Positions 17,214 through 63,524 of a stretch of DNA of 64,000 bases are shown here, in pieces. This DNA comes from a virus: positions 44,738-108,737 of the IMG/VR virus record IMGVR_UViG_3300027741_002766; one strand, 5' to 3'. Each line of letters opens with the position of its first letter. The stretch's first letter is position 1. The notes beneath the pieces were generated by a model. That model made no database searches. It was given only the letters and a program-made list of their open reading frames with translations, and was not told the origin of the DNA. The position numbers were made by a program, and so were the translations under genes.

Positions 17214-17588
17214 TTATACGTAACTGGCACGTCGGGTTTCTTGATTTAAAAATATACTCAGCAATTCTGTAGTCTGGCTTGGTACCAACTGTACCTGCAA
17301 TTCTATCAACACACCGTTTTGTTGTGGATAGTAGTTGACATCACTGAGATATACTCTTGGATCGCCACCAGCAATTCTTTGTATTTCGGCCAGAATAGCA
17401 GTTTCTGTGGTGTTGTCTTGATTTTCAAAGATTGCATCTGCCAAGGTAGATCCATACGCAGGACGGCCGGGCAAGGTTCCTTGACGAATGTTGAAAGCAT
17501 TCAAGAGGTCACGCTTGATCAACTCACCGTCAGTGAGTGTGAATTTTTTGTATTGATTAATTGTGCTATAGCCTACAAATGTGGTCAT
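17214..17588 (-). CDS. Baseplate wedge / sheath initiator, T4 gp25-like
   Basis: 'LIKRDLLNAFNIRQGTLPGRPAYGSTL...EIQRIAGGDPRV', the GPW/gp25 pattern; adjacent to gp6-like gene. Confidence 0.85.
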   Translation of the reverse strand: MTTFVGYSTINQYKKFTLTDGELIKRDLLNAFNIRQGTLPGRPAYGSTLADAIFENQDNTTETAILAEIQRIAGGDPRVYLSDVNYYPQQNGVLIELQVQLVPSQTTELLSIFLNQETRRASYV

Positions 17589-17593
17589 AAAGG

Positions 17594-17599
17594 TATTTA
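17594..17599 (-). promoter_or_regulatory. Late promoter TAAATA (leaderless type)
   Basis: CATAAATA-CCTTT-ATG. Confidence 0.6.
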
Positions 17600-37347: not shown

Positions 37348-37353
37348 TAAATA
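37348..37353 (+). promoter_or_regulatory. Late promoter TAAATA (leaderless type)
   Basis: GATAAATA, 7 nt, portal ATG. Confidence 0.6.
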
Positions 37354-37360
37354 ATACACT

Positions 37361-39139
37361 ATGGCTGGATGGCGAAAATATTTTAAAGTGGCTGACCTCT
37401 CAGGTCAGATGAGCCCTATTTCGGGTGGTAGAGATGCGGGCTTGCCCGGATATCCACGAAACGATGGTCGTGGATCAAATCTAGCACAGACTGATTTTGC
37501 ATTCCGTAACTATGCCAGCCGACTGCCAGAAGTGTATTCTGGGCACCCTAATCGAATTGAACGCTACAATCAATATGAAAACATGGACGCTGACTCAGAA
37601 GTCAATGCATGTTTAGATATTATCGCCGAGTTCTCCACACAACTCAATGACGACAACAACACTCCATTTGAGATACAGTATTCAGATGAACCCACTGACC
37701 ACGAAATTGAGATCATCCGCAAGCAGATGCAACAGTGGACCAAACTCAACAAACTAGATCAGCGCATCTTCAAACTGTTCCGTAACACCATCAAGTACGG
37801 TGATCAAATCTTTGTGCGTGATCCAGAAACATTTGAAATGTACTGGGTAGACATGTCAAAAGTCAGCCGAGTAATTGTAAACGAATCGGAAGGCAAGCGT
37901 CCTGAGCAGTACATCATTAGAGATATCAATCCCAACTTTCAAAACTTGACAGTGGCAGCCAAGACCACCACAGATTTCATGGTTAATCCGCCCACAGGTG
38001 GTGGTTATCAGCAGGGTTCGGGCTATACCATGCCCAACACTGCCATGACAGGAACCAGTAGATTTAGCCGTGCTGTGAACGAGACCTGTATTGATGCCAA
38101 ACACGTGGTGCATCTTTCCATGAATGAAGGCTTAGACACGTTTTGGCCCTTTGGCAAGTCAATCCTGGAAAACATTTTCAAAGTATTCAAGCAGAAAGAA
38201 CTGCTGGAAGATGCGTTACTAATCTATCGTGTGCAACGTGCTCCTGAGCGCAGAGTGTTCAAGATTGACGTGGGCAACATGCCATCACACCTGGCCATGC
38301 AATTTGTGGAACGTGTGAAAAATGAAATGCACCAACGCAGAATACCCACATACGGTGGCGGTGGTGGCAACATCATGGATTCAAGTTACAATCCATTGAG
38401 TATCAACGAAGACTTCTTTTTCCCCACAGGTGCTGATGGACGTGGCTCTAGTGTAGATGTATTACCGGGCGGTCAAAATCTAGGCGAAATCGACGATTTA
38501 AAGTACTTCAACAACAAAATGGCTCGTGGTTTACGTGTGCCGTCAAGTTACTTGCCCACTGCGCCTGACGACTCCGAGCGCACCATGCAGGACGGCAAAG
38601 TGGGTACGGCCTTGATTCAAGAGTATAGATTCAACCAGTATTGCGAGCGACTGCAAGCACTTATCATGCAGAAACTTGATGATGAATTTAAGATGTTCCT
38701 GCGCTGGAGAGGCTTCAACATTGATGCTGGCCTGTTCCAACTCAAGTTCAACCCACCACAAAACTTTGCCAGTTATCGTCAGGCTGAGATGGACACAGCA
38801 CGTATCAGCAGTTTTACCAGTCTGGAGCAGTTGCCTTACATGAGCAAACGTTTTATGCTAGAGCGTTTCTTGGGTCTCAGCAAGGACGAAATTGAAAGAA
38901 ACGAAACAATGTGGCGTGAAGAACGTGACCGACCTGAACTGCAAACCACACAAGGGCAGGACCTACGCTCAATTGGTATTACTCCAGCAGGTATGGAAAC
39001 TGATATTGCCACAGGTGAAGAAATGGCCAATCTACAGGCACCTGCCGCAGAAGGTGGCTTGCCAGCCGCACCTGCAGGCGGTGTAGGTGGTACTATACCG
39101 GGCGTTCAAGCACCGGCGGCCGCACCGGCGGGATTATAA
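37361..39139 (+). CDS. gp20: Portal protein, T4 gp20-like
   Basis: 'LLEDALLIYRVQRAPERRVFKIDVGNMP', 'EDFFFP', 'LPGGQNLGEIDDLKYF...LRVPSS'. Confidence 0.95.
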   Translation: MAGWRKYFKVADLSGQMSPISGGRDAGLPGYPRNDGRGSNLAQTDFAFRNYASRLPEVYSGHPNRIERYNQYENMDADSEVNACLDIIAEFSTQLNDDNNTPFEIQYSDEPTDHEIEIIRKQMQQWTKLNKLDQRIFKLFRNTIKYGDQIFVRDPETFEMYWVDMSKVSRVIVNESEGKRPEQYIIRDINPNFQNLTVAAKTTTDFMVNPPTGGGYQQGSGYTMPNTAMTGTSRFSRAVNETCIDAKHVVHLSMNEGLDTFWPFGKSILENIFKVFKQKELLEDALLIYRVQRAPERRVFKIDVGNMPSHLAMQFVERVKNEMHQRRIPTYGGGGGNIMDSSYNPLSINEDFFFPTGADGRGSSVDVLPGGQNLGEIDDLKYFNNKMARGLRVPSSYLPTAPDDSERTMQDGKVGTALIQEYRFNQYCERLQALIMQKLDDEFKMFLRWRGFNIDAGLFQLKFNPPQNFASYRQAEMDTARISSFTSLEQLPYMSKRFMLERFLGLSKDEIERNETMWREERDRPELQTTQGQDLRSIGITPAGMETDIATGEEMANLQAPAAEGGLPAAPAGGVGGTIPGVQAPAAAPAGL

Positions 39140-39146
39140 ATACAGC

Positions 39147-39806
39147 ATGAACAATTATCGTAAGATATACAAAAATCATTATGGTAAAATTCCAACTGAT
39201 GAAACCGGAAGATCTTACGAAATTCATCACATTGACGGTAATCATACCAACAACAATATTAGTAATCTTAAATTAGTTACAATTCAAGAACATTACAATA
39301 TTCATTATTCTCAGCAAGATTGGGGAGCCTGTCAAGCAATAGCAATTCGCATGGAAATTGATCATGCTACTATTTCTGACATGGCAAGAAAATCCAGTTT
39401 GGCTAGAGTTGCTAAAGGGACTCATCCATTTTCTGGACCAGCACAGAATCTTAAAAAAGTAGCGAATGGAACGCACCCATCAAAAATTAGGATGGAAAAC
39501 AGAACACATAATTTTTTGGGTGAGAATCACCCAATGAAAGTGGCTTCGGCAAACGGAACCCATCATTTTAGTAGTAAAAAACTTGAAGAGTTAAAACAAA
39601 CCAATCCTGACAAATTTGCAAAAATTTGTAAACAACGATCAGATACTGCGTTTCAACGAATAGCAAATGGAACCCATGCTGGTGTTAAAATATTTTCTAC
39701 CTACCACACTTGTCCACATTGTGGCAAACAGGGAAAAGGTGCTATTATGTATAGATTTCATTATGATAATTGTAAAACAATAAAGAAACTAAATATTGAA
39801 TTATGA
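39147..39806 (+). CDS. Free-standing HNH homing endonuclease
   Basis: 'YEIHHIDGNHTNNNISNL...EHYNIH', five (N/K)GTH-like repeats, C-terminal CPHC; AT-rich. Start at ATG 39147, 4 nt after TATAAATA (39135-39142). Confidence 0.9.
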   Translation: MNNYRKIYKNHYGKIPTDETGRSYEIHHIDGNHTNNNISNLKLVTIQEHYNIHYSQQDWGACQAIAIRMEIDHATISDMARKSSLARVAKGTHPFSGPAQNLKKVANGTHPSKIRMENRTHNFLGENHPMKVASANGTHHFSSKKLEELKQTNPDKFAKICKQRSDTAFQRIANGTHAGVKIFSTYHTCPHCGKQGKGAIMYRFHYDNCKTIKKLNIEL

Positions 39807-40973: not shown

Positions 40974-41621
40974 ATGAGATACCTACAAGAGCATTTGAAC
41001 TTTAATCAGGCCAAGATTCGCGTCTTGGTCGAAGATGCTCCTGACGGCAAAGGCCCTTTCAATGGCAAGAACTTGTACATGGAAGGCATCTGTATCGAAG
41101 GCGGAGTAAAAAACGCCAACGAACGGGTGTATCCTGTGCATGAAATTGCCAAGGCCGTGGACACTATCAACAAACAAGTGGTAGAAGGCTACAGCGTGAT
41201 GGGCGAAGTAGATCACCCAGAAGATCTCAAAATCAACTTGGATCGCGTGAGTCATACCATTGACAAAATGTGGATGGATGGCCCTTGCGGTTATGGCAAG
41301 TTGAGAATTATTCCAACGCCAATGGGACAACTGGTCAAGACCATGTTGGACTCAGGTGTCAAACTAGGAGTTTCGAGCCGTGGTTCCGGTAACGTGAACG
41401 ACGGCAACGGACATGTCAGTGACTTTGAAATTGTCACTGTCGATGTTGTTGCTCAACCCAGCGCCCCACATGCTTATCCCAAGGCCATCTATGAAGGACT
41501 TCTCAACATGAAGTACGGACATAGAGTCATGGAAGTGGCGAGAGATGCCGGCAAGGACAGCAAGGTACAGAGATATTTGCAGAACGAGGTAACTCGTTTG
41601 ATCAAAGATCTCAAAATATAA
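40974..41621 (+). CDS. gp21: Prohead protease, T4 gp21-like
   Basis: 'KNANERVYP', 'GEVDHP', 'RVSH', 'GVSSRGSG', 'VDVVAQPSAPHAY'. Confidence 0.95.
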   Translation: MRYLQEHLNFNQAKIRVLVEDAPDGKGPFNGKNLYMEGICIEGGVKNANERVYPVHEIAKAVDTINKQVVEGYSVMGEVDHPEDLKINLDRVSHTIDKMWMDGPCGYGKLRIIPTPMGQLVKTMLDSGVKLGVSSRGSGNVNDGNGHVSDFEIVTVDVVAQPSAPHAYPKAIYEGLLNMKYGHRVMEVARDAGKDSKVQRYLQNEVTRLIKDLKI

Positions 41622-42754: not shown

Positions 42755-43966
42755 ATGTCAGAACAATTATTAGAAAGCCGCTGGGGCGAAACCAAAGAAG
42801 CATTGCTTGAAGGTTTGAACGGTTCCAAGCGCAACAGCATGAGTGTTATCCTCGAAAACACTCGCAAGTACTTGAAGGAAAACGCAAGTGGTGGTTCAAC
42901 AGGCTCTGGTAACATTGCCACATTGAACCGCGTGATTTTGCCAGTGATCCGTCGTGTGATGCCAACAGTTATTGCTAACGAGTTGGTGGGCGTTCAGCCA
43001 ATGACAGGCCCAGTTGGTCAAATCCACACATTACGTGTGCGTTATGCCAACTCAATGACTGACAACAGTCCAGCGCAGACCAGCACTGCGGCCGGTCAAG
43101 AAGCATTGAGCCCATTCTTGATTGCTCAAGCATATTCTTCAGCATCTAGCGTTACTGCTGGTGTTGTTGACCCAACACAGAACATCTACTCTGGTGCTAA
43201 CACATCAGTTCTAGAAGGTTCTGGTGGTCGTCAAATTTCCGTGCAAATCTTGAAGCAGGCTGTTGAAGCCAAGACTCGCAAGTTGCAAGCACGTTGGACT
43301 TTTGAAGCCGCTCAAGACGCACAAGCAATGCATGGTATCGACGTAGAAGCCGAAATCATGGCCGCTTTGGCTCAAGAGATCACTGCTGAAATCGACCAAG
43401 AGATTCTTTTGAGTCTCCGTAGTTTGGCTTCAACTGAGTACACATACAACCAAGCAACTGTTTCAGGTACTGCTACATTCGTTGGTGACGAGCATGCCGC
43501 ATTGGCAGTTTTGATCAACCGTGTTGCTAACTTGATCGCCCAACGCACACGTCGTGGCGCAGGTAACTACGCTGTTGTGTCTTCAGCAAGTTTGACAGTG
43601 TTGCAATCTGCAACTACTTCTGCTTTTGCACGTACTACAGAAGGTACATTCGAAGCACCTACAAACACCAAGTTTGTTGGTACATTGAACGGCGCAATGC
43701 GTGTGTTCGTTGACTCTTATGCAAGTGACACAACTCCTGTGTTGGTTGGTTACAAGGGTTCTTCAGAAGCAGACGCTCCAGCATTCTACTGCCCATACAT
43801 TCCTTTGATGTCAAGTGGTGTTGTGTTGGATCCCACAACCTTTGAACCAGTTGTGTCATTCATGACACGCTACGGGTTTATCGAACTCACTAACACCGCA
43901 TCGTCTTTTGGCAATGCTGGCGATTATGTGGGAGAGATAGCCGTTTCGAATCTGAGTTTCTCCTAA
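42755..43966 (+). CDS. gp23: Major capsid protein, T4 gp23-like
   Basis: 'VGVQPMTGPVGQIHTLR', 'VEAKTRKLQARWT', 'FYCPYIPL', 'FMTRYG'; AAGGAG SD; strong codon bias. Confidence 0.97.
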   Translation: MSEQLLESRWGETKEALLEGLNGSKRNSMSVILENTRKYLKENASGGSTGSGNIATLNRVILPVIRRVMPTVIANELVGVQPMTGPVGQIHTLRVRYANSMTDNSPAQTSTAAGQEALSPFLIAQAYSSASSVTAGVVDPTQNIYSGANTSVLEGSGGRQISVQILKQAVEAKTRKLQARWTFEAAQDAQAMHGIDVEAEIMAALAQEITAEIDQEILLSLRSLASTEYTYNQATVSGTATFVGDEHAALAVLINRVANLIAQRTRRGAGNYAVVSSASLTVLQSATTSAFARTTEGTFEAPTNTKFVGTLNGAMRVFVDSYASDTTPVLVGYKGSSEADAPAFYCPYIPLMSSGVVLDPTTFEPVVSFMTRYGFIELTNTASSFGNAGDYVGEIAVSNLSFS

Positions 43967-43993: not shown

Positions 43994-44020
43994 AAAAAAA
44001 GCACCTTCGGGTGCTTTTTT
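43994..44020 (+). terminator. Intrinsic terminator after the capsid gene (bidirectional form)
   Basis: AAAAAAAGCACC-TTCG-GGTGCTTTTTT. Confidence 0.9.
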
Positions 44021-44021
44021 G

Positions 44022-44082
44022 TTGACTTTTCTTTCTAAAAATGTTATTGTTACAAGGCGAAATTGCGGTGAGAAACTAAATA
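44022..44082 (+). promoter_or_regulatory. Sigma70-like promoter plus late TAAATA for the homing endonuclease
   Basis: TTGACT, 17 nt, TG-T-TATTGT (44022-44050); TAAATA at 44077-44082, 5 nt before ATG 44088. Confidence 0.5.
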
Positions 44083-44087
44083 ACAAT

Positions 44088-44843
44088 ATGAAACCATACA
44101 CCTATCTAATAAAACATCGTCCTACAAGCAAAGTCTATTATGGATATCGTTCTGCTAACCAAGTAAATCCGTGTGATGATCTTTGGAAACATTATTTTAC
44201 CAGTAGTCATGGTGTACAACAGTTGATTGATGAAACCGGCGCAGATAGTTTTGATGTGGAAATACGCAGAATATTTGAAACCAAAGAACAGGCAAGCAAC
44301 TGGGAAACCCGAGTATTACGTCGCTGCCGAGTATTAGAAGACGAGCGTTGGCTTAATCAAAACATTGCCGGTTATATTGTGCCCACCAAAGAAAGCCGAA
44401 AAAAGATCAGTGACTACCACAAAGGAAAACCTAAGAGTGATCAACACAAACAAAATCTAAGTAAATCACAAAAAGGTAAATCAAAAAATTATGTACAAAC
44501 AGAAGAACACAAAAGAAAAAATTCTTTAGCAAACAGTGGGAAAAATAATCCGATGTACGGTACTTGTACACCTGAACGTGCGGCAAATATAAGTGCCGCT
44601 AAAAAAGGTAAACCTGCCGCAAACAAAGGTGTTCCGATGAGTGAAGAGCAAAAAGCAAAGATTCGTGCTACTAAAGCCATTAGTCCAACTAAGATGAGTG
44701 CGGAGTCAATCGCTCGCCGGATAGCCAAACAAACTGGCCAAAAACGACAAAAACTACACTGCCCACATTGTGAACGAGACATAGCAGTCGGGTGGTATAA
44801 TCGGCACGGTGATCAATGCCGCGCCCGACTAAATACCTTGTGA
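44088..44843 (+). CDS. Free-standing GIY-YIG (Seg-like) homing endonuclease with NUMOD3-like repeats
   Basis: 'PYTYLIKHRPTSKVYYGYR', 'YFTSS', 'WE..VL', 'WLNQN'; repeats 'KSDQHKQNLSKSQKGK', 'SGKNNPMYG', 'MSEEQKAKI'; CPHC tail. Confidence 0.88.
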   Translation: MKPYTYLIKHRPTSKVYYGYRSANQVNPCDDLWKHYFTSSHGVQQLIDETGADSFDVEIRRIFETKEQASNWETRVLRRCRVLEDERWLNQNIAGYIVPTKESRKKISDYHKGKPKSDQHKQNLSKSQKGKSKNYVQTEEHKRKNSLANSGKNNPMYGTCTPERAANISAAKKGKPAANKGVPMSEEQKAKIRATKAISPTKMSAESIARRIAKQTGQKRQKLHCPHCERDIAVGWYNRHGDQCRARLNTL

Positions 44844-44900: not shown

Positions 44901-44916
44901 CATGGCTAAATAGACC

Positions 44917-45936
44917 ATGCTAGAAAATTACTGGAGTACCAATTTTGTTTACGATCACAGCCATAGAAATCATTTTGATTATGTAGATCAAAGCACATTG
45001 TCCAAACATTTGTGCTTTGTGTCCGACACCATGTTAAAAATCCATCAAATGGATGTGGCACATGATGCTGAACTTATTCATCTGTGTCAGACAGAAACCA
45101 ATCGCATGCCGGTGTTGTGTTTGGACAGCAACCCCTACGATGTTGAATCCTATCTCAGTGAATTAGAGAAGCACGTAGACCCTCAAACTTTCTTTGTGTT
45201 TAATCCAGATATTAGACAGGAGCAAAGCACACGCTCAAATCTTGCACCCTGGCCGTCTTGGTTGATCAATCAACATTTACAAAAAAATATGCAAGTAGGA
45301 CAAGTAAAAACTCATAGAATAAGTTTTTTGTCTGGCATACCTAGGTACCATAGAATATATTTGTTTAGACAAATCCGACCCTGGATACAGCACAATGATG
45401 TTGTGGTTGTTAACTGTTTCAGTCGGGAACAATTTTTAAACACAGTGCCTAGAGGAATAAGAGTTGATGCTGATAGTTGGCTGAATGATTTGCCCTGGAG
45501 CAACAAGTTGGAATATATTGACACTGATCAGACATGTACCAATGCCAATCTACCCTCATTGAATCAGCATCCTGCTTACACAGCATGTGTTAATATCACG
45601 GGTGAAACCTTGGGCTACGGAACACAAGTTTTGCCTAGTGAAAAAACTTGGAAAGCCTATAGATCAGGTTGTTTGGTCGTGAACTATGGAATACAAGATA
45701 TGCCACTGGCACTGAAAAATCTTGGCATCGAAATTTGGAAAGAATATGATACCTCTCAACCAGCCGAAGTCAAATGTGATAAAATTGTAGAATTATTCCA
45801 GCGTGATGATATTGAACAGTTATACGCAAAACATCGCACTATGATTGAACACAATCAAAATTTAATTAACAGCAAGAGTTTTGTAAAAAAATTAGCACAA
45901 CCTGCTATAAACAAACTACAAAAACATTTACGTTAG
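44917..45936 (+). CDS. Putative glycosyltransferase-like protein (GT10-like C-terminal motif)
   Basis: 'VNITGET...SEKTWKAYRSGCLVVNYG' resembles the E-N/T...(T/S)EK...A...G motif of alpha-1,3-fucosyltransferases; TAAATA (44907-44912) 4 nt before ATG. Confidence 0.55.
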   Translation: MLENYWSTNFVYDHSHRNHFDYVDQSTLSKHLCFVSDTMLKIHQMDVAHDAELIHLCQTETNRMPVLCLDSNPYDVESYLSELEKHVDPQTFFVFNPDIRQEQSTRSNLAPWPSWLINQHLQKNMQVGQVKTHRISFLSGIPRYHRIYLFRQIRPWIQHNDVVVVNCFSREQFLNTVPRGIRVDADSWLNDLPWSNKLEYIDTDQTCTNANLPSLNQHPAYTACVNITGETLGYGTQVLPSEKTWKAYRSGCLVVNYGIQDMPLALKNLGIEIWKEYDTSQPAEVKCDKIVELFQRDDIEQLYAKHRTMIEHNQNLINSKSFVKKLAQPAINKLQKHLR

Positions 45937-47090
45937 ATCTTGAACCAGCCCAAGAACTTTTCCATCCGGGCCAGGGGGGCTGACCAATCACCGTAGGTTT
46001 CTTGACGGAACAATCGGGCAGTGGTATACCAAGGAGAATCATCACGATTCTGCATCCAGCGCCAGCAAGCACCATACGCATTGAGTGGAATCCATAGAGG
46101 CCGACCTATAGCACCTGCTAGGTGTGCGGCTGCGGTGTCTACCGATATTACCAGATCCATGTGATGCATCAGGGCGGCTGTGTCAGCAAAATCATTAATG
46201 GTACCTGGATAGCATTCGGCACCTGCGGCCCGGATAACAGCAGTATCTTCGTCACTGGCATCCACCTGTAGGCTTACCCATTGATGTTCGGGAAATTTAC
46301 GAACCAACTCAGCCATGGTCTCTACCGGCATGCTTTTGTGTTGATTGATCCAGGAGTCTCTGCGCCCAGACCAGGTAATACCAATTCTCATGCGATTCTT
46401 GGGAATACCCAGGCGTTGAGCCCAGGCCCGCGCACGTTCCGCATCTACCTGTACATACTGCAGATAGTGCTGAACATTTTCCAGTCGCATGTTTAGGATT
46501 CGAGGCAGACTCATCATGGCCACCCAGTAGTCAAAAGGACCAATTTGATCTTCTGTGTTGCAGGTAATGCCCACAATGGCGTCGGGGGTATTGATCAACA
46601 AAGGCTTGATACCTGGACTCACATGCAGGCGAATCTTGGCACCCATATCTTGCAAGTTACCACAAAATCGCAAAAACTGAATTTGATCACCAAGACCTTG
46701 TTCGCCAATGACCAGAATAGTTTTGCCACGCAGGTCCTCGCCAGACCATTCGGGAGCAGGCAGGTTGGGTTTGGTACCCGACAAGTGCTCATAGCGCCAG
46801 CGACTTTCGTACTGCCGCCAGCCCTGTTCATAATTGCCCAGCATCAAATTGGCCACGGCCAGATTGAACTCAGCAGTGACACTGGCAGGATCCAGTGCTC
46901 GTGCAGCCTCCAGGAAAGGCACAGCACGACGGGTGTGTCCCATCTCTCTCAATACATTGCCATAGTTGTTGAAGGCAGCGGAACTTTCAGGGTCCTGCAC
47001 AAATGCCTGTGCATAAAATGCAATGGCCTGATCGGGTTGGTGTTTTTCTCTGGCCAGGTTACCGCTGGCAATCAAGTCGTTTGTGTTCAT
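45933..47090 (-). CDS. TPR-repeat glycosyltransferase (GT9-like)
   Basis: N-terminal TPRs, 'EQGLGDQIQFLRF', 'DFADTAALMHHMDLVISVDTAAAHLAGAIG', 'SPWY..ARLFRQ'. Start ATG 47090, 5 nt after TAAATA (47096-47101). Confidence 0.88.
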   Translation of the reverse strand: MNTNDLIASGNLAREKHQPDQAIAFYAQAFVQDPESSAAFNNYGNVLREMGHTRRAVPFLEAARALDPASVTAEFNLAVANLMLGNYEQGWRQYESRWRYEHLSGTKPNLPAPEWSGEDLRGKTILVIGEQGLGDQIQFLRFCGNLQDMGAKIRLHVSPGIKPLLINTPDAIVGITCNTEDQIGPFDYWVAMMSLPRILNMRLENVQHYLQYVQVDAERARAWAQRLGIPKNRMRIGITWSGRRDSWINQHKSMPVETMAELVRKFPEHQWVSLQVDASDEDTAVIRAAGAECYPGTINDFADTAALMHHMDLVISVDTAAAHLAGAIGRPLWIPLNAYGACWRWMQNRDDSPWYTTARLFRQETYGDWSAPLARMEKFLGWFKI

Positions 47091-47140
47091 GAAGATATTT
47101 ACTAACACCGGCACACTGGGCAAAATAAACTAGATTTACA

Positions 47141-47236
47141 TAAATACTTGTCAACGCAATTCTGCGTTTTATGCGGCGATTAACCCCACCGCGTAGCGGC
47201 TAGAACCCGCATTGGGCTTCTACTAGGAGAAATCAA
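47141..47236 (+). promoter_or_regulatory. Late promoter with structured ~90-nt 5' leader
   Basis: TAAATA, three tandem hairpins, loop-to-downstream complementarity (TAGAA/TTCTA), AGGAG SD. Confidence 0.65.
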
Positions 47237-48061
47237 ATGGGAAGATCACTTAAAATACAAAAAACAAACATTGGATCTGGATCCACTGTAACAGGCAATC
47301 CACCTGTAACCGCCTACAATCAAAACGTGCTTACAGATGCAGGCTTCACATCCTTTGGCAACTTGATTGATCCTGATGCTGGCAGCGGTACAGGACTCAC
47401 TAACAGTCAGTTCCTGGGTGTGGTAGGCGGTGTACCTGCCACCAGTAATCCCAGTGCTACTTTTCCAGAAGTGTTGACTCAAGCCAATATCTTGCTGGCT
47501 GATGGCACAAATACTGCTTACGGTAACAGTCAAATTCTACGACAAAAAGGCGCACACAAGTTTATGGTTGCTAACTTAGATAGCATAACCAGTGATGGTA
47601 GTTTTATTGTAGGTCAAGCATACCAAATTGCCTCATTGGGTAATACTGCCTGGACCAGTTATGGTGCTCCTACTACCGTGGCAGTGGGTGACGTTTTCAC
47701 CGCAACTTCGGTAGGCGGCGCAGGCACAGGAACTGCTTATCCAGTGGGCACTTGTGTGTTGCAAAACTCAGCCACACCAACTGCTGGTTTTATGAGTGTG
47801 GGCTACACGTTCAATGGTGGTAGCACTACCTATGCTAGTTATATCACTAACAAGTGGGTGCGTGACTGGAACGGCATGACATATGGCAACTATAACAATG
47901 GCAATGATGGTGAAAATATCTATTCCAACGAAAACTACTATGTGACCAACTTCTTTAGCAATGTGGGCACAGTGACATTGAGTGGTGCAGACGTGATCAA
48001 CAGCGCACCAGGCAACAACGGTTCTGTGTATATTGCACAGATCGACAACGTTACAAGTTAA
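47237..48061 (+). CDS. Virion structural protein (possible head decoration)
   Basis: 274 aa, Gly/Thr/Asn-rich; own late promoter, strong SD and terminator. Confidence 0.7.
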   Translation: MGRSLKIQKTNIGSGSTVTGNPPVTAYNQNVLTDAGFTSFGNLIDPDAGSGTGLTNSQFLGVVGGVPATSNPSATFPEVLTQANILLADGTNTAYGNSQILRQKGAHKFMVANLDSITSDGSFIVGQAYQIASLGNTAWTSYGAPTTVAVGDVFTATSVGGAGTGTAYPVGTCVLQNSATPTAGFMSVGYTFNGGSTTYASYITNKWVRDWNGMTYGNYNNGNDGENIYSNENYYVTNFFSNVGTVTLSGADVINSAPGNNGSVYIAQIDNVTS

Positions 48062-51961: not shown

Positions 51962-54900
51962 ATGTCATTTCCAGTATCACCAACCAATGGACAGATCACA
52001 GTAGTTAACCAGGTATCATACCAGTATTCTAGTGCAACCAATTCATGGACTAGAATTTTATCTACTGCCAACGTTATCACAGCCAACACAATTGCTGTAA
52101 ACGGAGCACTCACAGTAGGCACCACAATCTCGGCTACTGGCAACATTGTTACTCAAGCGTACTTTATTGGTGATGGTAGTAAAATTAGCAACATCAGCGC
52201 CAATGCTGTTTCAGTAAGCAACATTACTAACGGTACCAGTAACGTCAGTATCAACACTTCGGGTGGTAATGCTACAGTTGGTATTGGTGGCACATCAAAT
52301 GTGGCAGTGTTTGCCACAACTGGCACATACATTACAGGTCTGTTGAGTGTAAGTGGCAATATTACTGGTGGTAATATTCTAACAGGTGGTTTGATCAGCA
52401 CCACAGGAACAATTAATTCAGCAACCACAATCACTGGTGGCAACTTGGCCACTGCTGGCTATGCCAGTGCTACAGGTAACGTAACCGGTGGCAATATCGT
52501 AACAGGCGGTTTGATCACTGCCACTGCCAACATTTCTGGTGGTAACTTGCTCACAGTGGGCTTGATAAGTGCCACATCAACTATCACAAGCGCAGCCAAC
52601 ATCACAGGTGGCAACATCCTAACTGCTGGCCAAGTGTCAGCCACTGCCAACGTAACTGGTGGCAATTTGCTCACAGCAGGTCTTGCCAGTGTAACTGGTA
52701 ACGTAACTGGTGGCAACTTGACCACAGGCGGTCAGATCACAGCAACCGGTAACATCTCTAGTGCAGCCAATGTGGCTGGCGGCAATATTCTTACTGCTGG
52801 TTTGGTAAGTGCTGGTGCAAACATCACTGGTGCTAATGTCTTAACAGGCGGACAAGTATCAGCCACTGCCAATGTCACTGGCGGCAACATTTTGACAGGT
52901 GGATTGATAAGTGCCACATCAACAATTACATCAGCAGCCAACATCACTGGTCAAAACTTGATTACAGGTGGCTTGGTAACAGCAACCGGTAATGTCACAG
53001 GCGGTAACGTATTAACAGGTGGTTTGATTTCTGCAACTGCTACAATCACTGGTGGCAACTTGGCCACTGCAGGTTATGCTTCAGCAACTGGCAACGTCAC
53101 AGGCGGCAACGTCAACACAGGTGGTTTGATCACCGCAACTGGCAACATCGCTGGTGGCAACGTCAACACAAGTGGCATAGTATCAGCCTCGGGCAACATA
53201 TTTGGCAACAATATCTTTGCCACAACAACAGTCAGCACAGCCGGCAACGTGATTGCTGGCAACGTAAACACCAGTAACATTCGTCCCACAAGTGGCGCAC
53301 TAACAATCAGTACAGGCACAGGTAATTTAAACTTAAATCCTGCTGGTAACATTGTATTAAGTGCCAACACCTGGATCAACAACCTAGCAACTCCAGTTCA
53401 AGATGGTGATGCGGCTTCCAAGTACTATGTTGATACTATTGCTTCAACTGGCATTCAGTATCACCAGGCAGTTTATGCAGCCACCACAACAACCCTGGCC
53501 GCAACCACAGGTGGTACAATCACTTATGCTCAACCCAATGGCGTGGCCAATGGCGTTGGCGCAACACTGACAACTACCACATCGTTCAACTTGATCGACA
53601 CTGCCAACGTTCAAACAGTAGGTACACGCATCTTGGTCAAAGACCAAGCCAATGCGGTGCAGAACGGTGTTTATGTTTGGTCAAACGCCACTGCACTTAC
53701 TCGATCCGCAGACACTGACGAATACGGTGCCAACAGTACAGAACAGTTCAGTATCAACGACTACTTCTTTACCACAAACGGTAACGTCAACGCTGGCACT
53801 GCGTTCATTGTGAGCGCACCGCCCGGGGTGATCACATTTGGTACCTCAAACATTGCATTCAGTACCTTCAGTACAAGTCAAGTTTACTCGGCCAACACTG
53901 CGGCTGGTTTGAGCCTGACAGGCACGGTATTCTCGGCCAAGGTTGACAACAACACCACAGCCTTTGACGGCACTGGTAACATTATTGTCAAGGCTTCTGC
54001 TAATTTGACCACACCCAATATTGGTGCGGCAACTGGTACAAGTTTAAACACAACTGGCAACGTTGACGCAGGTAACTTGCGCACAGGCGGTTTGGTAAGT
54101 GCAACTGCCAACGTAACTGGTGGTAACTTGACCACAGGTGGTTTGATCACTGCAACTGGCAACTTAACTGCTGGCAACATTCAAACAGCCGGACAGATTT
54201 CTGCAACTGGCAACATTGTGGCAGCCGCAGGCTCGTTCTTTGTGGGTAATGGTTCAGCACTGACAGGTGTTACTGCTACTTCAGCAGGCTTCCCAATCAC
54301 AGCAGGTACTTCAAACATTGCGGCTGCTGTCAACGGCAACATTGGTATCACTGTAGCCGGTGCAAGTAATGTGGGATTGTTTACACTTTCGGGCTTGCTT
54401 GTAACTGGTTTGATCAGTGCCAACGGAAACGTTACTGGTGGAAACATTACTACAGGTGGATTAGTGTCAGCAACTGGCACAGTAACTGGTTCAACGCTAA
54501 TTGGCACTGTTGTAACAGCAACTGGCAACGTGTACGGTGGCAATGTATCAACAGGTGGTTTGGTCACAGCAACTGGTAACGTGACTGGTGGCAACTTGAC
54601 CACAGGTGGATTGATCACGGCAACTGCCAATATTTCTGGTGGTAACTTGTTGACAGGTGGATTGATAAGTGCCACTTCAACAATCACATCAGCAGCCAAC
54701 ATAACTGGTCAGAACTTGCTCACAGCAGGTTTAGTAAGTGCCGGTTCAAATATTCAAGGCGCCAACATCTTGACAGGTGGCCTAGTGTCAGCAACTGCCA
54801 ACGTCACAGGTGGCAATTTGATCACTGGCGGATTGGTGTCGGCAACAGGTAACATCACATCAGTTGCCAACGTTGCCGGTGGTAACTTGCTGACAGGTGG

Positions 54901-57631
54901 CTTGGTATCAGCCACTGCCAACGTCACAGGTGGCAATTTGACCACAGGTGGAGTGATCACAGCAACAGGCACAATCACAGGTGGCAACATTGTCACAGGT
55001 GGCATAGTATCAGCAACTGGCAATATTACCTCAGTTGCCAACGTTGCCGGTGGTAACTTGCTGACAGGTGGCTTGGTATCAGCCACTGCCAACGTCACAG
55101 GTGGCAATTTGATCACTGGCGGATTGATTTCAGCAACTGCCACAATCACAGGTGGCAACTTGGCCACAGGTGGCACAGCAAGTGCTGGTGGTAACATTAC
55201 AGGTGCCAACATCCTAACAGGTGGTTTGGTATCAGCGACCAGCACAGTACAAGGTTCAACATTGATTGGTTCAGTTGTTACAGCAACTGGTACCATCACT
55301 GGTGGCAATTTGGTCACTGGTGGTCAAGTGTCAGCAACAGGTAACATCACATCAGTGGCCAACATCGCAGGTGGCAACTTGCTTACAGGTGGATTGATAT
55401 CTGCAACTGCCAATATCACTGGTGGCAATGTCTTAACTGCTGGACTGGTAAGTGCAACTGGCAACGTAACTGGTAATTACATTTTGGGCAATGGTGCGTT
55501 CTTGAGTGGCGTGATCACAAGTGTGGCCAACATCAACAACGGCACATCAAACGTAAGTATCTACGCAGCCAATGCCAACGTGGCAGTCAGTGTAGGCGGT
55601 ACGTCAAACGTGGCAGTGTTTGCTACCACAGGTGAATACATCAACGGTTTGTTGAGTGTGAGTGGTAATGTAACAGGTGGTAACGTATTGACAGGTGGTT
55701 TAGTAAGTGCTACTGCCAACGTGACTGGTGGTAATTTGACCACAGGTGGTTTAGTAAGTGCTACAGGTACTGTACAAGGTTCGACCCTGATCGGCGCAGT
55801 GATCACAGCAACCGGTAACGTATATGGTGGCAACTTATCAACAGGCGGCCTGATCACAGCAACGGCCAATATCACTGGTGGTAACTTGCTGACAGGTGGC
55901 CTGATATCGGCCACATCGACAATCACTTCTGGTGCTAATATCACTGGTGCCAACATTTTGACAGGTGGTTTAGTATCAGCAACTGGTACTGTCCAAGGTT
56001 CAACATTAATTGGTTCAGTTGTGACAGCAACTGGTAATGTGTATGGTGGTAATGTATCAACTGCTGGTCTGGTAACAGCAACTGGCAACGTGACAGGTGG
56101 CAACATATTGACAGGTGGATTGATATCCGCAACGTCAACCATCACTAGTGCAGCCAATATCACTGGTGGCAACATCTTAACAGGTGGCCTAATATCAGCA
56201 ACTGCCACAATCACAGGTGGCAACTTGGCCACAGGTGGCACAGCAAGTGCAGGCGGCAACATTACAGGTGCCAACATCTTGACAGGTGGTTTGATGTCAA
56301 GTACGGGCAACGCTATCCATGGCAATATCTCAACTGCTGGATTGATTACTGCTACTGGCAATATCAACGGTGGAAATATTACCACAGTTGGTTTGATCAG
56401 TACCTCGGGCAATGTTGCTACTGGTAATTTGTTGACCAACAACTTCTACTATGCCAACGGTGCTCCAATCACACTAGGCGTGAACTACACAGCAAATACC
56501 ACACCTCCAAGTGGCCCAGCCAATGGATGGCAGTGGTACAATACTTCAACTGATGTGTTGTATGAATACCTCAGCGACGGTACAAGCCAATACTGGGTTG
56601 ACATAACAAGTCCTGCATTTGCCGGCGGCGTTGTGGCAAACGTGGCGATCTCGGGCAGTATGTTGCTCAATGCCAATGCCACATATGACCTGGGCAGTAG
56701 TTCACAACAAGTTCGCAACGTATACGCTGTAAATTACTATGGTAACGGTGCTACACTAAGCGGTATTATCACAAGTGTAAGCAACATCAACAACGGTACA
56801 TCAAACGTGACTGTTGTGAGTTCCGGTGGTAATATTGCAGCCTCAGTTGGTGGAACATCAAATGTGATGGTGATCAGTTCAGGTGCTGTGGCAATCACAG
56901 GTGACTTGAGTGTATCTGGCAACGCAAGTTTGACTGGTAACATTGTTGGCGATGCTATCTACAATGGTACAACTAGCCTACAAATTCAAACATCCGGTGG
57001 TAATGCCAACCTCACTATTGGTGGAACATCAAACGTAGTTGTTTGGGCCACAACAGGCGAATATGTAACTGGATTAATCAGTGCAAGCGGTAACATTACT
57101 GGTGGCAATTTGACCACAGCAGGCGTACTCACAGTCAATTCTGGAGCAGCCGCAACAGCCATTGTGAACGGTGCAGGTAATGCAGTTGGTAACATTGGTA
57201 GTTCTAGTAAGTATTTTAACCAATTGTTTGCTCAGGCAACCACAGCACTGTATGCTGACTTGGCAGAAAATTATGTGAGCGATGCTGACTATGCACCAGG
57301 CACAGTTTTGGATTTTGGTGGTACTCAAGAAGTCACCATAAGTACTGTAGATTCCAGCAAGCGGGTTGCTGGTGTGGTTTCAACTAATCCGGCTCATTTG
57401 ATGAACGCAGGAGTTGTTGGTGAACATGTGGTCACAGTTGCCCTGATTGGTCGTGTACCAGTCAAGGTAACAGGTACAGTACGCAAGGGTGATTTGATGG
57501 TCAGTGCTGGAGACGGCACAGCCAGAGCAGTTACAATTGCAAGTCCAAAAGTAGGTACTATAATTGGTAAATCACTAGAAGACTTCGACGGCGACAAAGG
57601 CACAATTGAAATCGTGATTGGCAAGCATTAA
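51962..57631 (+). CDS. Long repeat fibre protein (1889 aa) with C-terminal intramolecular chaperone / autocleavage domain
   Basis: Dozens of TGGN(L/I)xTGGL(I/V)SAT repeats; C-terminal 'YADLAENY...VAGVVSTNP...VALIGRVPVKV...GTIIGKSLE' (peptidase G2-type); AGGAG SD. Confidence 0.88.
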   Translation: MSFPVSPTNGQITVVNQVSYQYSSATNSWTRILSTANVITANTIAVNGALTVGTTISATGNIVTQAYFIGDGSKISNISANAVSVSNITNGTSNVSINTSGGNATVGIGGTSNVAVFATTGTYITGLLSVSGNITGGNILTGGLISTTGTINSATTITGGNLATAGYASATGNVTGGNIVTGGLITATANISGGNLLTVGLISATSTITSAANITGGNILTAGQVSATANVTGGNLLTAGLASVTGNVTGGNLTTGGQITATGNISSAANVAGGNILTAGLVSAGANITGANVLTGGQVSATANVTGGNILTGGLISATSTITSAANITGQNLITGGLVTATGNVTGGNVLTGGLISATATITGGNLATAGYASATGNVTGGNVNTGGLITATGNIAGGNVNTSGIVSASGNIFGNNIFATTTVSTAGNVIAGNVNTSNIRPTSGALTISTGTGNLNLNPAGNIVLSANTWINNLATPVQDGDAASKYYVDTIASTGIQYHQAVYAATTTTLAATTGGTITYAQPNGVANGVGATLTTTTSFNLIDTANVQTVGTRILVKDQANAVQNGVYVWSNATALTRSADTDEYGANSTEQFSINDYFFTTNGNVNAGTAFIVSAPPGVITFGTSNIAFSTFSTSQVYSANTAAGLSLTGTVFSAKVDNNTTAFDGTGNIIVKASANLTTPNIGAATGTSLNTTGNVDAGNLRTGGLVSATANVTGGNLTTGGLITATGNLTAGNIQTAGQISATGNIVAAAGSFFVGNGSALTGVTATSAGFPITAGTSNIAAAVNGNIGITVAGASNVGLFTLSGLLVTGLISANGNVTGGNITTGGLVSATGTVTGSTLIGTVVTATGNVYGGNVSTGGLVTATGNVTGGNLTTGGLITATANISGGNLLTGGLISATSTITSAANITGQNLLTAGLVSAGSNIQGANILTGGLVSATANVTGGNLITGGLVSATGNITSVANVAGGNLLTGGLVSATANVTGGNLTTGGVITATGTITGGNIVTGGIVSATGNITSVANVAGGNLLTGGLVSATANVTGGNLITGGLISATATITGGNLATGGTASAGGNITGANILTGGLVSATSTVQGSTLIGSVVTATGTITGGNLVTGGQVSATGNITSVANIAGGNLLTGGLISATANITGGNVLTAGLVSATGNVTGNYILGNGAFLSGVITSVANINNGTSNVSIYAANANVAVSVGGTSNVAVFATTGEYINGLLSVSGNVTGGNVLTGGLVSATANVTGGNLTTGGLVSATGTVQGSTLIGAVITATGNVYGGNLSTGGLITATANITGGNLLTGGLISATSTITSGANITGANILTGGLVSATGTVQGSTLIGSVVTATGNVYGGNVSTAGLVTATGNVTGGNILTGGLISATSTITSAANITGGNILTGGLISATATITGGNLATGGTASAGGNITGANILTGGLMSSTGNAIHGNISTAGLITATGNINGGNITTVGLISTSGNVATGNLLTNNFYYANGAPITLGVNYTANTTPPSGPANGWQWYNTSTDVLYEYLSDGTSQYWVDITSPAFAGGVVANVAISGSMLLNANATYDLGSSSQQVRNVYAVNYYGNGATLSGIITSVSNINNGTSNVTVVSSGGNIAASVGGTSNVMVISSGAVAITGDLSVSGNASLTGNIVGDAIYNGTTSLQIQTSGGNANLTIGGTSNVVVWATTGEYVTGLISASGNITGGNLTTAGVLTVNSGAAATAIVNGAGNAVGNIGSSSKYFNQLFAQATTALYADLAENYVSDADYAPGTVLDFGGTQEVTISTVDSSKRVAGVVSTNPAHLMNAGVVGEHVVTVALIGRVPVKVTGTVRKGDLMVSAGDGTARAVTIASPKVGTIIGKSLEDFDGDKGTIEIVIGKH
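54860..55112 (+). repeat. Exact 82-bp direct repeat inside the fibre gene
   Basis: 54860-54941 is identical to 55031-55112 (period 171 bp). Confidence 0.85.
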
Positions 57632-57642
57632 AAGGATAGCGA

Positions 57643-60600
57643 ATGGCCTTTCCAACGTCGCCGACGAACGGGCAAACGGTAGTTGTTAACAACGTTTCGT
57701 ATCAGTATTCGAACGTTAGCAACTCCTGGACCCGCATCCTCTCAACGGCCAACATCATCACGGCCAACACCATCGCAGTCAACGGCGCACTCAGCGCCGC
57801 TGGCAACATTTCAACAGGCAACTACTTTATTGGTAACGGTTCGTTACTGACAGGTATCGCCACTGGAACACCAACTTTAATCGCTAATGGTACATCCAAC
57901 GTCTCTGTTGCAAGTTCGGGTGGCAACATCAGAGTCAATGTAGGCGGCACATCTAACGTAATTGTTTATGCCACCACGGGCGAATATGTAACAGGTGTTA
58001 TAAGTGCCAGTGGTAATATTACTTCGGCAGGCAATGTCACTGGCGGTAACATTTTAACCGCCGGATTGGTCAGTGTCACTGGCACACTCAGTGTGAGTGG
58101 AGTAACCACGCTGGCCAATCTCAGCGCCGGCAACATTTCATCAGGTGGCATAAACTCTGGCGGAGCAATAAGTGCCACTGGCAACATCACCGGTGGCAAT
58201 TTATCAGGTACCAATATTGCAGGCACACTGACCACAGCCTCACAAACCAATATCACCAGCGTTGGAACACTGGGCTCATTGGCCGTTACCGCTAACGTAA
58301 CCGGTGGTAACTTACTAACAGGTGGACTTATTAGTGCTACATCAACTGTCACTGGATCAACTTTAATTGGTTCAGTTGTCACAGCAAGTGGTAACGTAAC
58401 CGGTGGCAACATATTAACAGGTGGATTAGTATCTGCCGCGGCCAATGTAACGGCCAATAACGGCATGTTTACCAATATTGTGAACGTGGCCAGTTTCACC
58501 GGAGGCCTTGTTTCTGTTACAGGCAATGTCACTGCCAACAATGGCATGTTCACCAACATTGTAAACGTGGCAAGCCATACAGGTGCTGTAGTATCAGTAA
58601 GTGGCAACGTAACTGGTGGTAACTTGTTGACTGCAGGCCTGATCAGTGCTACAAGTACAATCACCAGTGCGGCCAATATCACAGGTGGTAACATCTTAAC
58701 TGCTGGATTGATCAGTGCCGCAAGTACCATAACTGGTACAAGTCATCTGGGTTCAGTTGTTTCAGTCACAGCCAATATCACAGGTGGTAACATCCTAACA
58801 GGTGGGCAAGTTTCGGCAGTGGGTGCTGTCACAGGCGGATCCTTATCAATTGGTACCGGCAACACAGGCGATGCTATTATCTATGGTAACCTAACAGTTT
58901 ACGGCAATACCACAACCATCAATTCAAACACAATTACCACCAATGATCTCAACATCACTGTTGGTAACAATCAAAACACAGGTGCCGCACTGAACAATGC
59001 TGGTATAGACGTTGGTAACAACAACTTGGCCACCTGGAGATACAACAACGCTACCACAAGTTGGCAAAGTAATATTGCTGTCACACCCGCGGCCAATGCC
59101 ACATTGGCTCTTGGTGGCACCAGCAACTATTGGGGTACAGCCTATCTCAATGCCACACAGATTGCAACCACAGCCAGTGCTGTGGGCAACGTAACCGGTG
59201 GTAATTTACTAACTGGTGGATTGATATCAGCCACATCAACTATTACGTCAGCGGCAAATATCACAGGTGGTAATGTCTTAACTGGCGGTTTGATAAGTGC
59301 CGCAGGTAACATCAGTGGTAACAATATCTTTGGCGGATTTCTTTCGGCTGTGGCCAACGTGATTGGCGGTAACATAACAACAGGTGGCCTGATCACTGCA
59401 ACAGGCAACGTAACTGGCGGTAACATCCTGACAGGTGGATTGATTAGTGCTACTGCCAACGTGATCGCCAACAACGGAATATTCATCAACATAGTAAACA
59501 CTGCTAGTTTCACTGGTGGAATTGTATCGGTTACTGGCAACGTCACAGCCAATAACGGCATGTTCACCACGATTGTGAACGTGGCCAGTCATACAGGTGC
59601 TGTGGTAAGTGTTAGTGGCAACGTCACTGGTGGTAACATCTTAACTGGTGGCCTGATAAGTGCCGCTGGGAATATTGCTGGTAATGTGTTTATTGGTAAT
59701 GGTTCACAACTGACTGGTATTACTGGAACATATGGCAATGCCAATGTTGTGGCCAACTTGGCTGCTTTGGGATCAAATCCAGTATCAACCACAGGTAACA
59801 TAACTGGTGGTAACTTGTTGTTTGGATCTGGCGTTGCAAGTGGTACAGGCAACGTAACTGGTGGCAATATCTTGACAGGTGGATTAGTCAGTGCCGCTGG
59901 CACCATAACTGGCACAAGTTATTTGGGTTCAGTTGTGTCAGTCACTGCCAACATCACAGGCGGTAACATTTTAAATAATGGATTGATATCAGCCAGTGGT
60001 AACGTGACCAGCGGTAATATGCTGACAGCAGGGTTGATCTCTGCAACTGGTAATATTACTGGTGGTAACCTGTCAGGCACAAGTATTGCAGGTACATTGA
60101 CCACAGCCGCACAAACCAACATCACTTCAGTTGGTACTTTGAGCAGCCTGGCAGTGACAGCCAACGTAACGGGTGGTAACTTACTAACTGGTGGATTGAT
60201 CTCGGCAACTGGTAACATTACTGGTGGCAATATAACAATTCCAGGATCGGCTAACATATCTACTTTTATAGGTAATGTTTTCTTTGGCTCTATTCCAGCA
60301 CAGCCAACATGGTATACTGTTGCCCCATTAAATCTCAACAACAGTTTGGCAGCGGCCACAAAAGTTCAGTTAAATTTAATTAACACAGGTGGCGGCGCTG
60401 GTGCTGGATCAGCAATTGATTTCTACACTTATCAAATTTCAGTTGCCGCAGCCAACGCAGAAGCCAGAATAGCCGGAATTGATGATGGTAACTATTCGGC
60501 CTATCTCAGTCTTCAAACAAAAACTCCTGGTAGCATTGGCACTAATGGATTAGTTGAACGAGTAAAAATTGATTCAACTGGTGCATCGGTAGTTGCTAAT

Positions 60601-62583: not shown

Positions 62584-63524
62584 TGGCATTTCCAACGTCA
62601 CCAATCAATGGGCAACAGGCTACCATAAATGGTATAGTCTATACTTACAGCACAGCGTTGACTGCTTGGACGGTGAGTACATCACTGGGCAACTCGTTTG
62701 TAAGTATCAGCGTCTCTGGTAATGTCAATAGTGGAAATTTGTTAGCCACCGGCTTGGCCAGCGTCACAGGTAATATCACTGGCAATTACTTTATTGGTAA
62801 CGGCAGTCAATTGTCAGGTCTCAGTGCCAGTAAGATATTTAATGGCACAAGTGAAGCCAACATTGGCGCATCAGGTGGTAATGCCAATATCTCAATTGGT
62901 GGTACATCAAACGTATTTGTTGTGTCATCGACTGGTATTTTTACAACTGGTTTATCCAGCGTCAGCGGAAACATCACCACTGGTGGTAATTTAACCATTA
63001 CTGGTACAGCAGCCGCGGGTAGTGGGGTGTTGATTGTGTCAGGCAATATTCAAACCAGTACCGCCAACGCCACAGCCAACATTGGCAATGCCAGCAACTA
63101 CTTCAACAGACTGTTTGCTCAAGCGACCACAGCACTCTACGCTGACTTGGCTGAAGTTTACCGATCTGATGCACAGTATCCCCCAGGTACTGTGCTGGTA
63201 TTTGGTGGCTCACAAGAAGTCACAACAAGCACAGTCAGCCACGATACCAAAATCGCCGGCATAGTATCTACCAATCCTGCTCACGTGATGAATTCAGGAC
63301 TGCAATCTGAATTTACTGTGGAAGTTGGTTTGATTGGGCGTGTGCCATGTCAAGTGATTGGACCAATTGCCGCAGGTGATCAAGTGGTGTCAAGTAATCG
63401 GGCAGGTGTTGCTGAACGATTAGATCAGACAAAATATCGATCTGGAATGATTATTGGCAAAGCACTAGAGAGTTACTTAGGGACAGATGTTGGCACAATT
63501 GAAGTTGTGGTTGGCAGACTATAA
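62583..63524 (+). CDS. Short paralogous fibre protein (313 aa) with C-terminal chaperone domain
   Basis: MAFPTSPINGQ N-terminus and YADLAE domain; TAATG overlap with the upstream gene. Confidence 0.85.
   Translation: MAFPTSPINGQQATINGIVYTYSTALTAWTVSTSLGNSFVSISVSGNVNSGNLLATGLASVTGNITGNYFIGNGSQLSGLSASKIFNGTSEANIGASGGNANISIGGTSNVFVVSSTGIFTTGLSSVSGNITTGGNLTITGTAAAGSGVLIVSGNIQTSTANATANIGNASNYFNRLFAQATTALYADLAEVYRSDAQYPPGTVLVFGGSQEVTTSTVSHDTKIAGIVSTNPAHVMNSGLQSEFTVEVGLIGRVPCQVIGPIAAGDQVVSSNRAGVAERLDQTKYRSGMIIGKALESYLGTDVGTIEVVVGRL

Follow-up and report, generated by a model that had tools for sequence, protein, structure and literature searches.

The leader of a predicted late gene in T4-like phage DNA matches the orphan RNA motif freshwater-2

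The locus described here lies in a window of 64,000 nucleotides (positions 44,738 to 108,737 of IMG/VR record IMGVR_UViG_3300027741_002766), the record itself being 108.7 kb long and an estimated 30% complete. The window carries a T4-type head module with portal, prohead protease and gp23-type capsid genes (Table 1), and the source is an uncultured T4-like phage. Two homing endonucleases are inserted among the head genes: an HNH enzyme (39087-39806, plus strand) directly follows the portal gene, the end of which its frame overlaps, and a GIY-YIG/NUMOD3 enzyme (44019-44843, plus strand) directly follows the capsid gene. Further downstream, inside the virion gene block, a glycosyltransferase gene and a gene for a 274-residue protein are transcribed away from each other. 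As the glycosyltransferase gene occupies the minus strand, the segment between the two (47091-47236) is a divergent intergenic region and not the space that follows a gene on the same strand. It is in this segment that a structured leader runs up to the ribosome-binding site of the 274-residue frame.

Table 1. Features of the window and of the leader, in window coordinates
Feature	Position	Strand	Remarks
Portal gene	37361-39139		Head module
Prohead protease gene	40974-41621		Head module
gp23-type major capsid protein gene	42755-43966		Head module
TPR + family-9 (heptosyltransferase-like) glycosyltransferase gene	45933-47090	-	Inside virion gene block
T4-type late promoter motif CATAAATA	47139-47146	+	Just upstream of the RNA
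P1, AACGCA-ATTC-TGCGTT	47153-47168	+	6/6 pairs change on both sides; 90.4% of cells paired (101 leaders)
P2, TATGCGG / CCGCGTA, 12-nt loop 47177-47188	47170-47195	+	1/7 pairs change on both sides; 99.9% of cells paired
P3, GCGG-CTAGAAC-CCGC	47196-47210	+	4/4 pairs change on both sides; 96.5% of cells paired
Putative pseudoknot, 5' strand CCCA (3' end of P2 loop)	47185-47188	+	Pairs with 47238-47241
Putative pseudoknot, 3' strand UGGG (UG of AUG and GG of codon 2)	47238-47241	+	Covariation
Predicted hairpin CUUCU-ACU-AGGAG, SD 47225-47229 with anti-SD-like CUUCU 47217-47221	47217-47229	+	Minimum-energy fold
Downstream gene, 274 aa, N-terminus MGRSLKIQK	47237-48061	+	Large hypothetical phage protein family

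In an Rfam scan of the whole window, only one family rose above threshold, namely freshwater-2 (RF02980, type Cis-reg). The match, at 47152-47239 on the plus strand, scores 66.7 bits where the gathering threshold is 49.9 (E = 5.7e-08 when the full window is searched), spans model positions 1-84 of 84 without truncation, and is the single copy in the 108.7 kb record. A permissive cmscan of 46900-47500 (E <= 1) returned no other Rfam family except a chance microRNA match. The family signature is present at 47153-47210, with a variable P1, a P2 of the form UAUGC.G/C.GCGUA and a 4-bp P3 closed by the 7-nt loop YUAGAAC. The model also takes in AAGGAG, an A-rich spacer and AUG, a 3' arrangement common to all parsed relatives, and in the window both AGGAG and the ATG at 47237 lie inside the match. 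The leader had been put forward in a first-pass annotation, made from the sequence, as a candidate new cis-regulatory RNA; the full-length match means that the element is real but not new. The leader at 47152-47239 is almost certainly a copy of freshwater-2, and by its sequence an ordinary member of the family, with no feature that sets it apart.

Freshwater-2 can be described as an orphan motif, catalogued without an assigned function or host, of which the window adds another well-placed copy. To our knowledge it has been found only in environmental (aquatic) sequence and in no cultured organism, as its Rfam description has it, and it reportedly stems from the 224-motif comparative screen by Weinberg et al. 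in 2017. The present copy comes from an IMG/VR record, and neither the leader nor the downstream protein has a GenBank phage match by DNA or by protein. The motif is not named in the main text of the 2017 screen paper (PMC5737381), and a literature search for 'freshwater-2' and RF02980 found nothing relevant.

To place the window copy among its relatives, IMG/VR was scanned with a pattern made up of the P2 stem and P3 loop only, which gave at least 119 loci, and with two additional patterns for variants, one for second codons other than GGN and one for altered P3 loops. After filtering, 249 loci remained, corresponding to 192 unique leaders and 66 clusters at 80% identity. The covariance-model alignment comprises 101 distinct leaders, while the clade to which the window belongs comprises 38. 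In the RF02980 alignment, the P1, P2 and P3 hairpins drawn in the first-pass annotation are exactly the three hairpins of the family, and they are borne out at every level, being exact in the sequence, paired above chance, and covarying both in the 101 relatives and in the window's own clade (Table 1). Because the helices covary, an artefactual Rfam match is excluded. For the structure as a whole, no shuffle or slid register approaches the observed values, which is equally true within the 38-leader clade; the folding energy of the window leader is unremarkable (z = -1.13).

The three hairpins differ in how they vary. In P2, the changes fall at the sixth pair, which is GC in 54, AU in 26, UA in 20 and CG in 1 of the 101 leaders, and the remaining pairs do not vary, in part an effect of the search pattern, which prescribed them. 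The 7-nt loop of P3 is near-invariant, the sole variant at the loop G being an A, in 56 unique leaders. Variation is greatest in P1: of 182 leaders, 170 have a hairpin of at least 4 bp, which in 163 cases stops 0-2 nt short of P2, and a few lineages have no P1. A mutual-information scan of the anchored columns for further tertiary pairs gave only those of P2 and P3 together with the Arg codon. A pairing of the P3 loop GAAC with GUUC near the 5' end, where GUUC follows TAAATA in many family loci, was considered and rejected, as leaders with the G-to-A loop keep GUUC and the window has no GUUC.

Beyond the hairpins, the first-pass annotation had proposed an H-type pseudoknot between the P3 loop UAGAA (47201-47205) and UUCUA (47218-47222), switching against a mutually exclusive helix ATGCGG/CCGCAT. 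Every string and coordinate it gave is present in the sequence, and both pairings are perfectly complementary in the window; however, neither shows a single compensatory change in the 38 clade leaders and both equal their shuffled controls. The closing U-A pair of the proposed pseudoknot occurs in just 7 of the 38; in 13 the central G-C pair is lost, the loop G having become A while CUUCU is unchanged, with an A.C mismatch as the result. Across the family, UUCU is found in only 39 of 107 tails, many of which, at 0-8 nt, are too short for pairing with the P3 loop at all. The same UUCU tract is used by a predicted hairpin over the Shine-Dalgarno (SD) sequence that characterizes the clade. As for the alternative helix, its pairs are broken in 14 and 20 of the 38 clade leaders, exactly where P3 and P2 covary, and all six hold in 4 of 107 family leaders. 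Neither pairing is conserved, and a model in which one switches against the other is extremely improbable.

A conserved pseudoknot does seem to exist, with the P2 loop joined to the start codon rather than the P3 loop to the tail. Almost without exception the P2 loop ends in (C/U)CC(A/G), which is complementary to the UGG(G) of AUGGG. In 87% of AUGGG representatives the loop and positions +1 to +7 share an uninterrupted complementary stretch of at least 4 bases, compared with 1% in equal-size neighbouring windows and 37% with shuffled loops. The scan for second codons other than GGN yielded about 50 true members, all of which carry AUGGC (Ala at position 2). Of 39 unique AUGGC leaders, 18 have a GC-holding loop (GCCA, GCCG, GCUA, AGC, UGC), as against none of 153 AUGGG leaders. 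Counted by cluster state, GC-type loops are found in 10 of 18 AUGGC versus 0 of 55 AUGGG states (Fisher p = 7e-8), and within one tight cluster each change of the loop is matched by one in codon 2 (UCC/GGA, AGC/GCU, UGC/GCA). When tested on the model-based alignment, the model itself having no pseudoknot, 82.6% of cells in the loop-start helix are paired versus 78.9 +/- 0.7 after shuffling and 8-54% in slid registers, with 10 double changes versus 2.8 +/- 1.3, and none of 500 shuffles reaches either value. The contact amounts to just 3-5 bp, and since the ancestral loop persists in about half of the AUGGC lineages, one pair can evidently be lost. Thus, with a short contact that about half of the AUGGC lineages leave uncompensated, support for the loop-start pairing is real but moderate.

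The comparison removes two tempting but unsupported pairings and independently confirms that the P2 loop covaries with the start region. On this sequence evidence, the first-pass observation is confirmed in part, its hairpins being accurate and its pseudoknot and switch not. Its interpretation is likewise partly supported: it was right to read the segment as a folded, probably cis-regulatory leader placed directly before the SD of a late virion-module gene, and right about the kind of element, a cis-acting leader tied to translation, and its idea of translational control stays plausible. The novelty and the specific pairings were wrong. One further resemblance was noted in the tail of the window copy, where AUUGGGC (47211-47217) is similar to the start AUGGGA and supplies, through its UGGG at 47213-47216, a second possible partner for CCCA. 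Across 71 leaders with a tail of the form AUYGGRC, complementarity to the P2 loop is mostly 2-3 nt, and a role of this tail as a P2-loop decoy is probably not general.

The SD hairpin of the window's clade, with its 3-nt loop, is 100% paired and shows zero variation in the 38 clade leaders. Since it never varies, covariation speaks neither for it nor against it. A 5-bp complement to the SD of the same CUUCU/AGGAG kind is present in 43 of 120 family representatives. Outside this clade hairpin, the family consensus leaves AAGGAG and the A-rich spacer single-stranded.

The position of the leader relative to its promoter is similarly consistent across the family. T4 late promoters carry TATAAATA centred near -10, and of 114 untruncated loci, 113 have TAAATA, usually as GATAAATA or CATAAATA, no more than 70 nt ahead of P2. 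With the T4 spacing, which we take to hold here, transcription probably starts at about 47152, just after CATAAATA and one base before P1, and in most family members P1 begins 0-6 nt from the 5' end predicted in this way. A short GT(T)C motif, present in the window as GTC at 47150-47152, follows TAAATA by 8-10 nt in many family leaders and could reflect a preference of the initiation region or be part of the RNA.

Only 23 copies of TAAATA occur on both strands of the window, 14 of which lie within 200 nt upstream of an open reading frame start on the same strand. The gap from TAAATA to the start is 4-20 nt at six other frames versus 90 nt at the freshwater-2 gene, which bears out the first-pass statement that leaders are nearly absent from most late genes here. 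At four places (17588-17599, minus; 37348-37361, plus; 44907-44917, plus; 47090-47101, minus) a late-type TAAATA ends 4-7 nt before an ATG, and with T4-like spacing such messages would be leaderless or nearly so. Among them is the divergent glycosyltransferase gene (ATG at 47090, minus strand), with TAAATA at 47101-47096 and 5 nt between. No intrinsic terminator was found after the gene downstream of the leader, and a single-gene message is accordingly not claimed.

A long leader among late genes that are otherwise almost leaderless suggests special handling of this message, and such handling need not involve a switch. The compact 5' fold might guard an abundant late message from 5'-end-dependent decay or nucleases while presenting an open, strong SD, in which case the loop-to-start contact would merely compact the RNA. 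The closeness of P1 to the predicted 5' end in most members and the unpaired SD and spacer of the family consensus both fit such a leader. However, a plain stabilizer needs neither invariant loops nor a covarying contact with the start codon, and P1, which would be the expected protective hairpin, is the least conserved part of the RNA and is missing in some lineages. We consider a non-switching leader rather unlikely.

The genomic setting of the motif is strongly constrained. In all 122 freshwater-2 loci with a hit, a gp23 capsid gene lies upstream on the same strand, and in about 40 of the 122 the motif is located 73-155 nt from it. The capsid gene and the freshwater-2 gene are adjacent in about 40 relatives, unlike in the window, where three genes intervene (the GIY-YIG endonuclease, 44917-45936 and the minus-strand glycosyltransferase). 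One freshwater-2 copy each is present in four near-complete genomes (318-372 kb) and in a partial record of 204 kb. A related locus (L010) holds two copies, at 1432-1524 and 3151-3241, about 1.7 kb apart.

More than 1500 homologues, all of them hypothetical proteins, were found for the 274-residue product of the downstream gene, which belongs to no Pfam or PHROG family. Its AlphaFold model has a mean pLDDT of 58, with a confident beta-rich core confined to residues 78-200. A Foldseek comparison with the PDB gave no significant fold match (E >= 0.38), a wide structural search reached no more than Z = 4.1 with small SH3-like barrels, below the meaningful level, and the protein atlas held no usable hit. 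Across the family, proteins downstream of freshwater-2 range from 116 to 512 residues with mostly unrelated bodies, and nearly all begin MGRP[LI][KN]K. This N-terminus is conserved at the protein level, as Arg3 is encoded by CGT in 64, AGA in 34, CGC in 6 and CGA in 3 cases and Pro4 by all four of its codons. Among ten diverse family members, one has a PA14/GLEYA (sugar-binding) C-terminus and two have weak PHROG matches. From its position and variability, a reasonable guess is that the product is a capsid surface or decoration protein.

The joint conservation of the leader and the first ten or so residues, in proteins that otherwise have little in common, raises the possibility of autogenous control, in which the conserved basic N-terminal arm of the free product (MGRP[LI][KN]K[KR][FY]FG) would bind the leader and stabilize the fold that hides the AUG, matching synthesis of the protein to capsid assembly. 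The P22 scaffolding protein, T4 gp32 and ribosomal protein S15 are parallels for such control, and the constraint on the N-terminus at the protein level and the location of the gene beside the capsid gene would both suit it. However, the structural searches of the downstream protein found no known RNA-binding fold, the conserved N-terminus could equally be a capsid anchor, and some leaders precede other N-termini, such as MAHTRK and MATKK. Autogenous control by the free product is, in our estimate, quite doubtful.

For the locus as a whole, we regard it as fairly probable that the best explanation is a freshwater-2 leader of a late message with translational control by occlusion of the start. 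A late transcript from about 47152 would place P1 at the mRNA 5' end of a leader of about 85 nt, the RNA of which would fold into P1, P2 and P3. The CCCA of the P2 loop may then pair with UGGG and close a pseudoknot around P3 and the ribosome-binding site, and in the window's clade the additional hairpin CUUCU/AGGAG could also cover the SD. A leader folded in this manner would mask the AUG, together with the SD in this clade, and would thereby control translation initiation of a capsid-associated late protein, with some factor tipping the balance, be it a small ligand or a protein, perhaps the one that the gene itself encodes. Control of initiation by hiding the AUG, and in the clade also the SD, is offered tentatively, with slightly less than an even chance of being correct, and both repression by occlusion and any effector are what we infer. 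Against occlusion, the SD and A-rich spacer left unpaired in the family consensus would also fit a message that is constitutively well translated.

Were the effector a metabolite or ion, the element would be a riboswitch in which a small ligand binds the P2/P3 core and stabilizes the loop-to-start pseudoknot. Its several stems, the invariant UAUGC/GCGUA and YUAGAAC, a pseudoknot reaching the initiation region and the Rfam type Cis-reg are all in keeping with this idea. However, the genes headed by the motif are all of one kind, late genes of the structural module with no metabolic link, the neighbouring genes suggest no ligand, and the cmscan of 46900-47500 found no match to a riboswitch family even at E <= 1, including the classes whose pseudoknots occlude the ribosome-binding site. 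A riboswitch is thus very unlikely. The preQ1-II and SAM-II riboswitches resemble freshwater-2 in that a loop pairs with the initiation region and core nucleotides are conserved, whereas freshwater-2 is without an Rfam match to them at E <= 1 and without an association with metabolic genes.

Two protein-controlled leaders offer further points of comparison. In the E. coli rpsO (S15) leader, a hairpin loop pairs with sequence of the initiation region, and translation of the following gene is controlled by the pseudoknot so formed; there is no sequence or family relation, however, and the S15 effector and ribosome trapping of rpsO were shown experimentally, whereas any effector of freshwater-2 is hypothetical. 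The T4 gene 32 leader is likewise a pseudoknotted leader of a T4-type phage tied to translational control. Its pseudoknot is located far upstream of the ribosome-binding site and serves as the starting point from which gp32 binds an unstructured AU-rich tract cooperatively, whereas the freshwater-2 pseudoknot reaches the start codon, and no gene 32-type RNA family was matched in the cmscan (E <= 1). Nor is the gene product of the gene 32 type, since it is not a single-stranded DNA-binding protein but a head-module protein with no Pfam or PHROG family.

To the Rfam entry, the comparison adds a late promoter, a gp23 neighbour, a downstream protein beginning MGRP and the pairing of the P2 loop with the start codon, the last of which provides a simple, testable handle on the control of one late protein in these phages. 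A bolder reading makes freshwater-2 a true sensor: a factor captured by its invariant P2/P3 core would hold the P2 loop against the start codon, and the most attractive candidate for that factor is the conserved basic N-terminus of the capsid-associated protein encoded downstream. This we think improbable, to the same degree as autogenous control. If true, a large group of uncultured T4-like phages, giant genomes among them, would couple production of a hypervariable protein of the capsid surface to the assembly of the capsid.

Outside viral records, a search of 185,579 species genomes returned 24 pattern matches, only three of which are full motifs with P3 pairing, an SD and an MGR start. Two of the three occur in the bin Haliscomenobacter sp. 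EUL_031, on contigs of 183 and 148 kb, and the third in the bin Rickettsiales MED657, on a contig of 54 kb. These binned contigs are most likely phage DNA, probably of giant phages, that was grouped with bacteria, and as a clue to the hosts of freshwater-2 phages the metagenome bins provide a weak hint at best.

The window additionally contains three very large open reading frames, at 1185-13712 (minus strand, 4175 residues), 51962-57631 (plus strand, 1889 residues) and 57643-62583 (plus strand, 1646 residues). A C-terminal domain of PHROG 22593 is common to the 1889- and 1646-residue frames and to the frame that follows them (62583-63524, plus strand, 313 residues), which points to a group of related proteins, fibre-like or of the surface, encoded downstream of the freshwater-2 gene.
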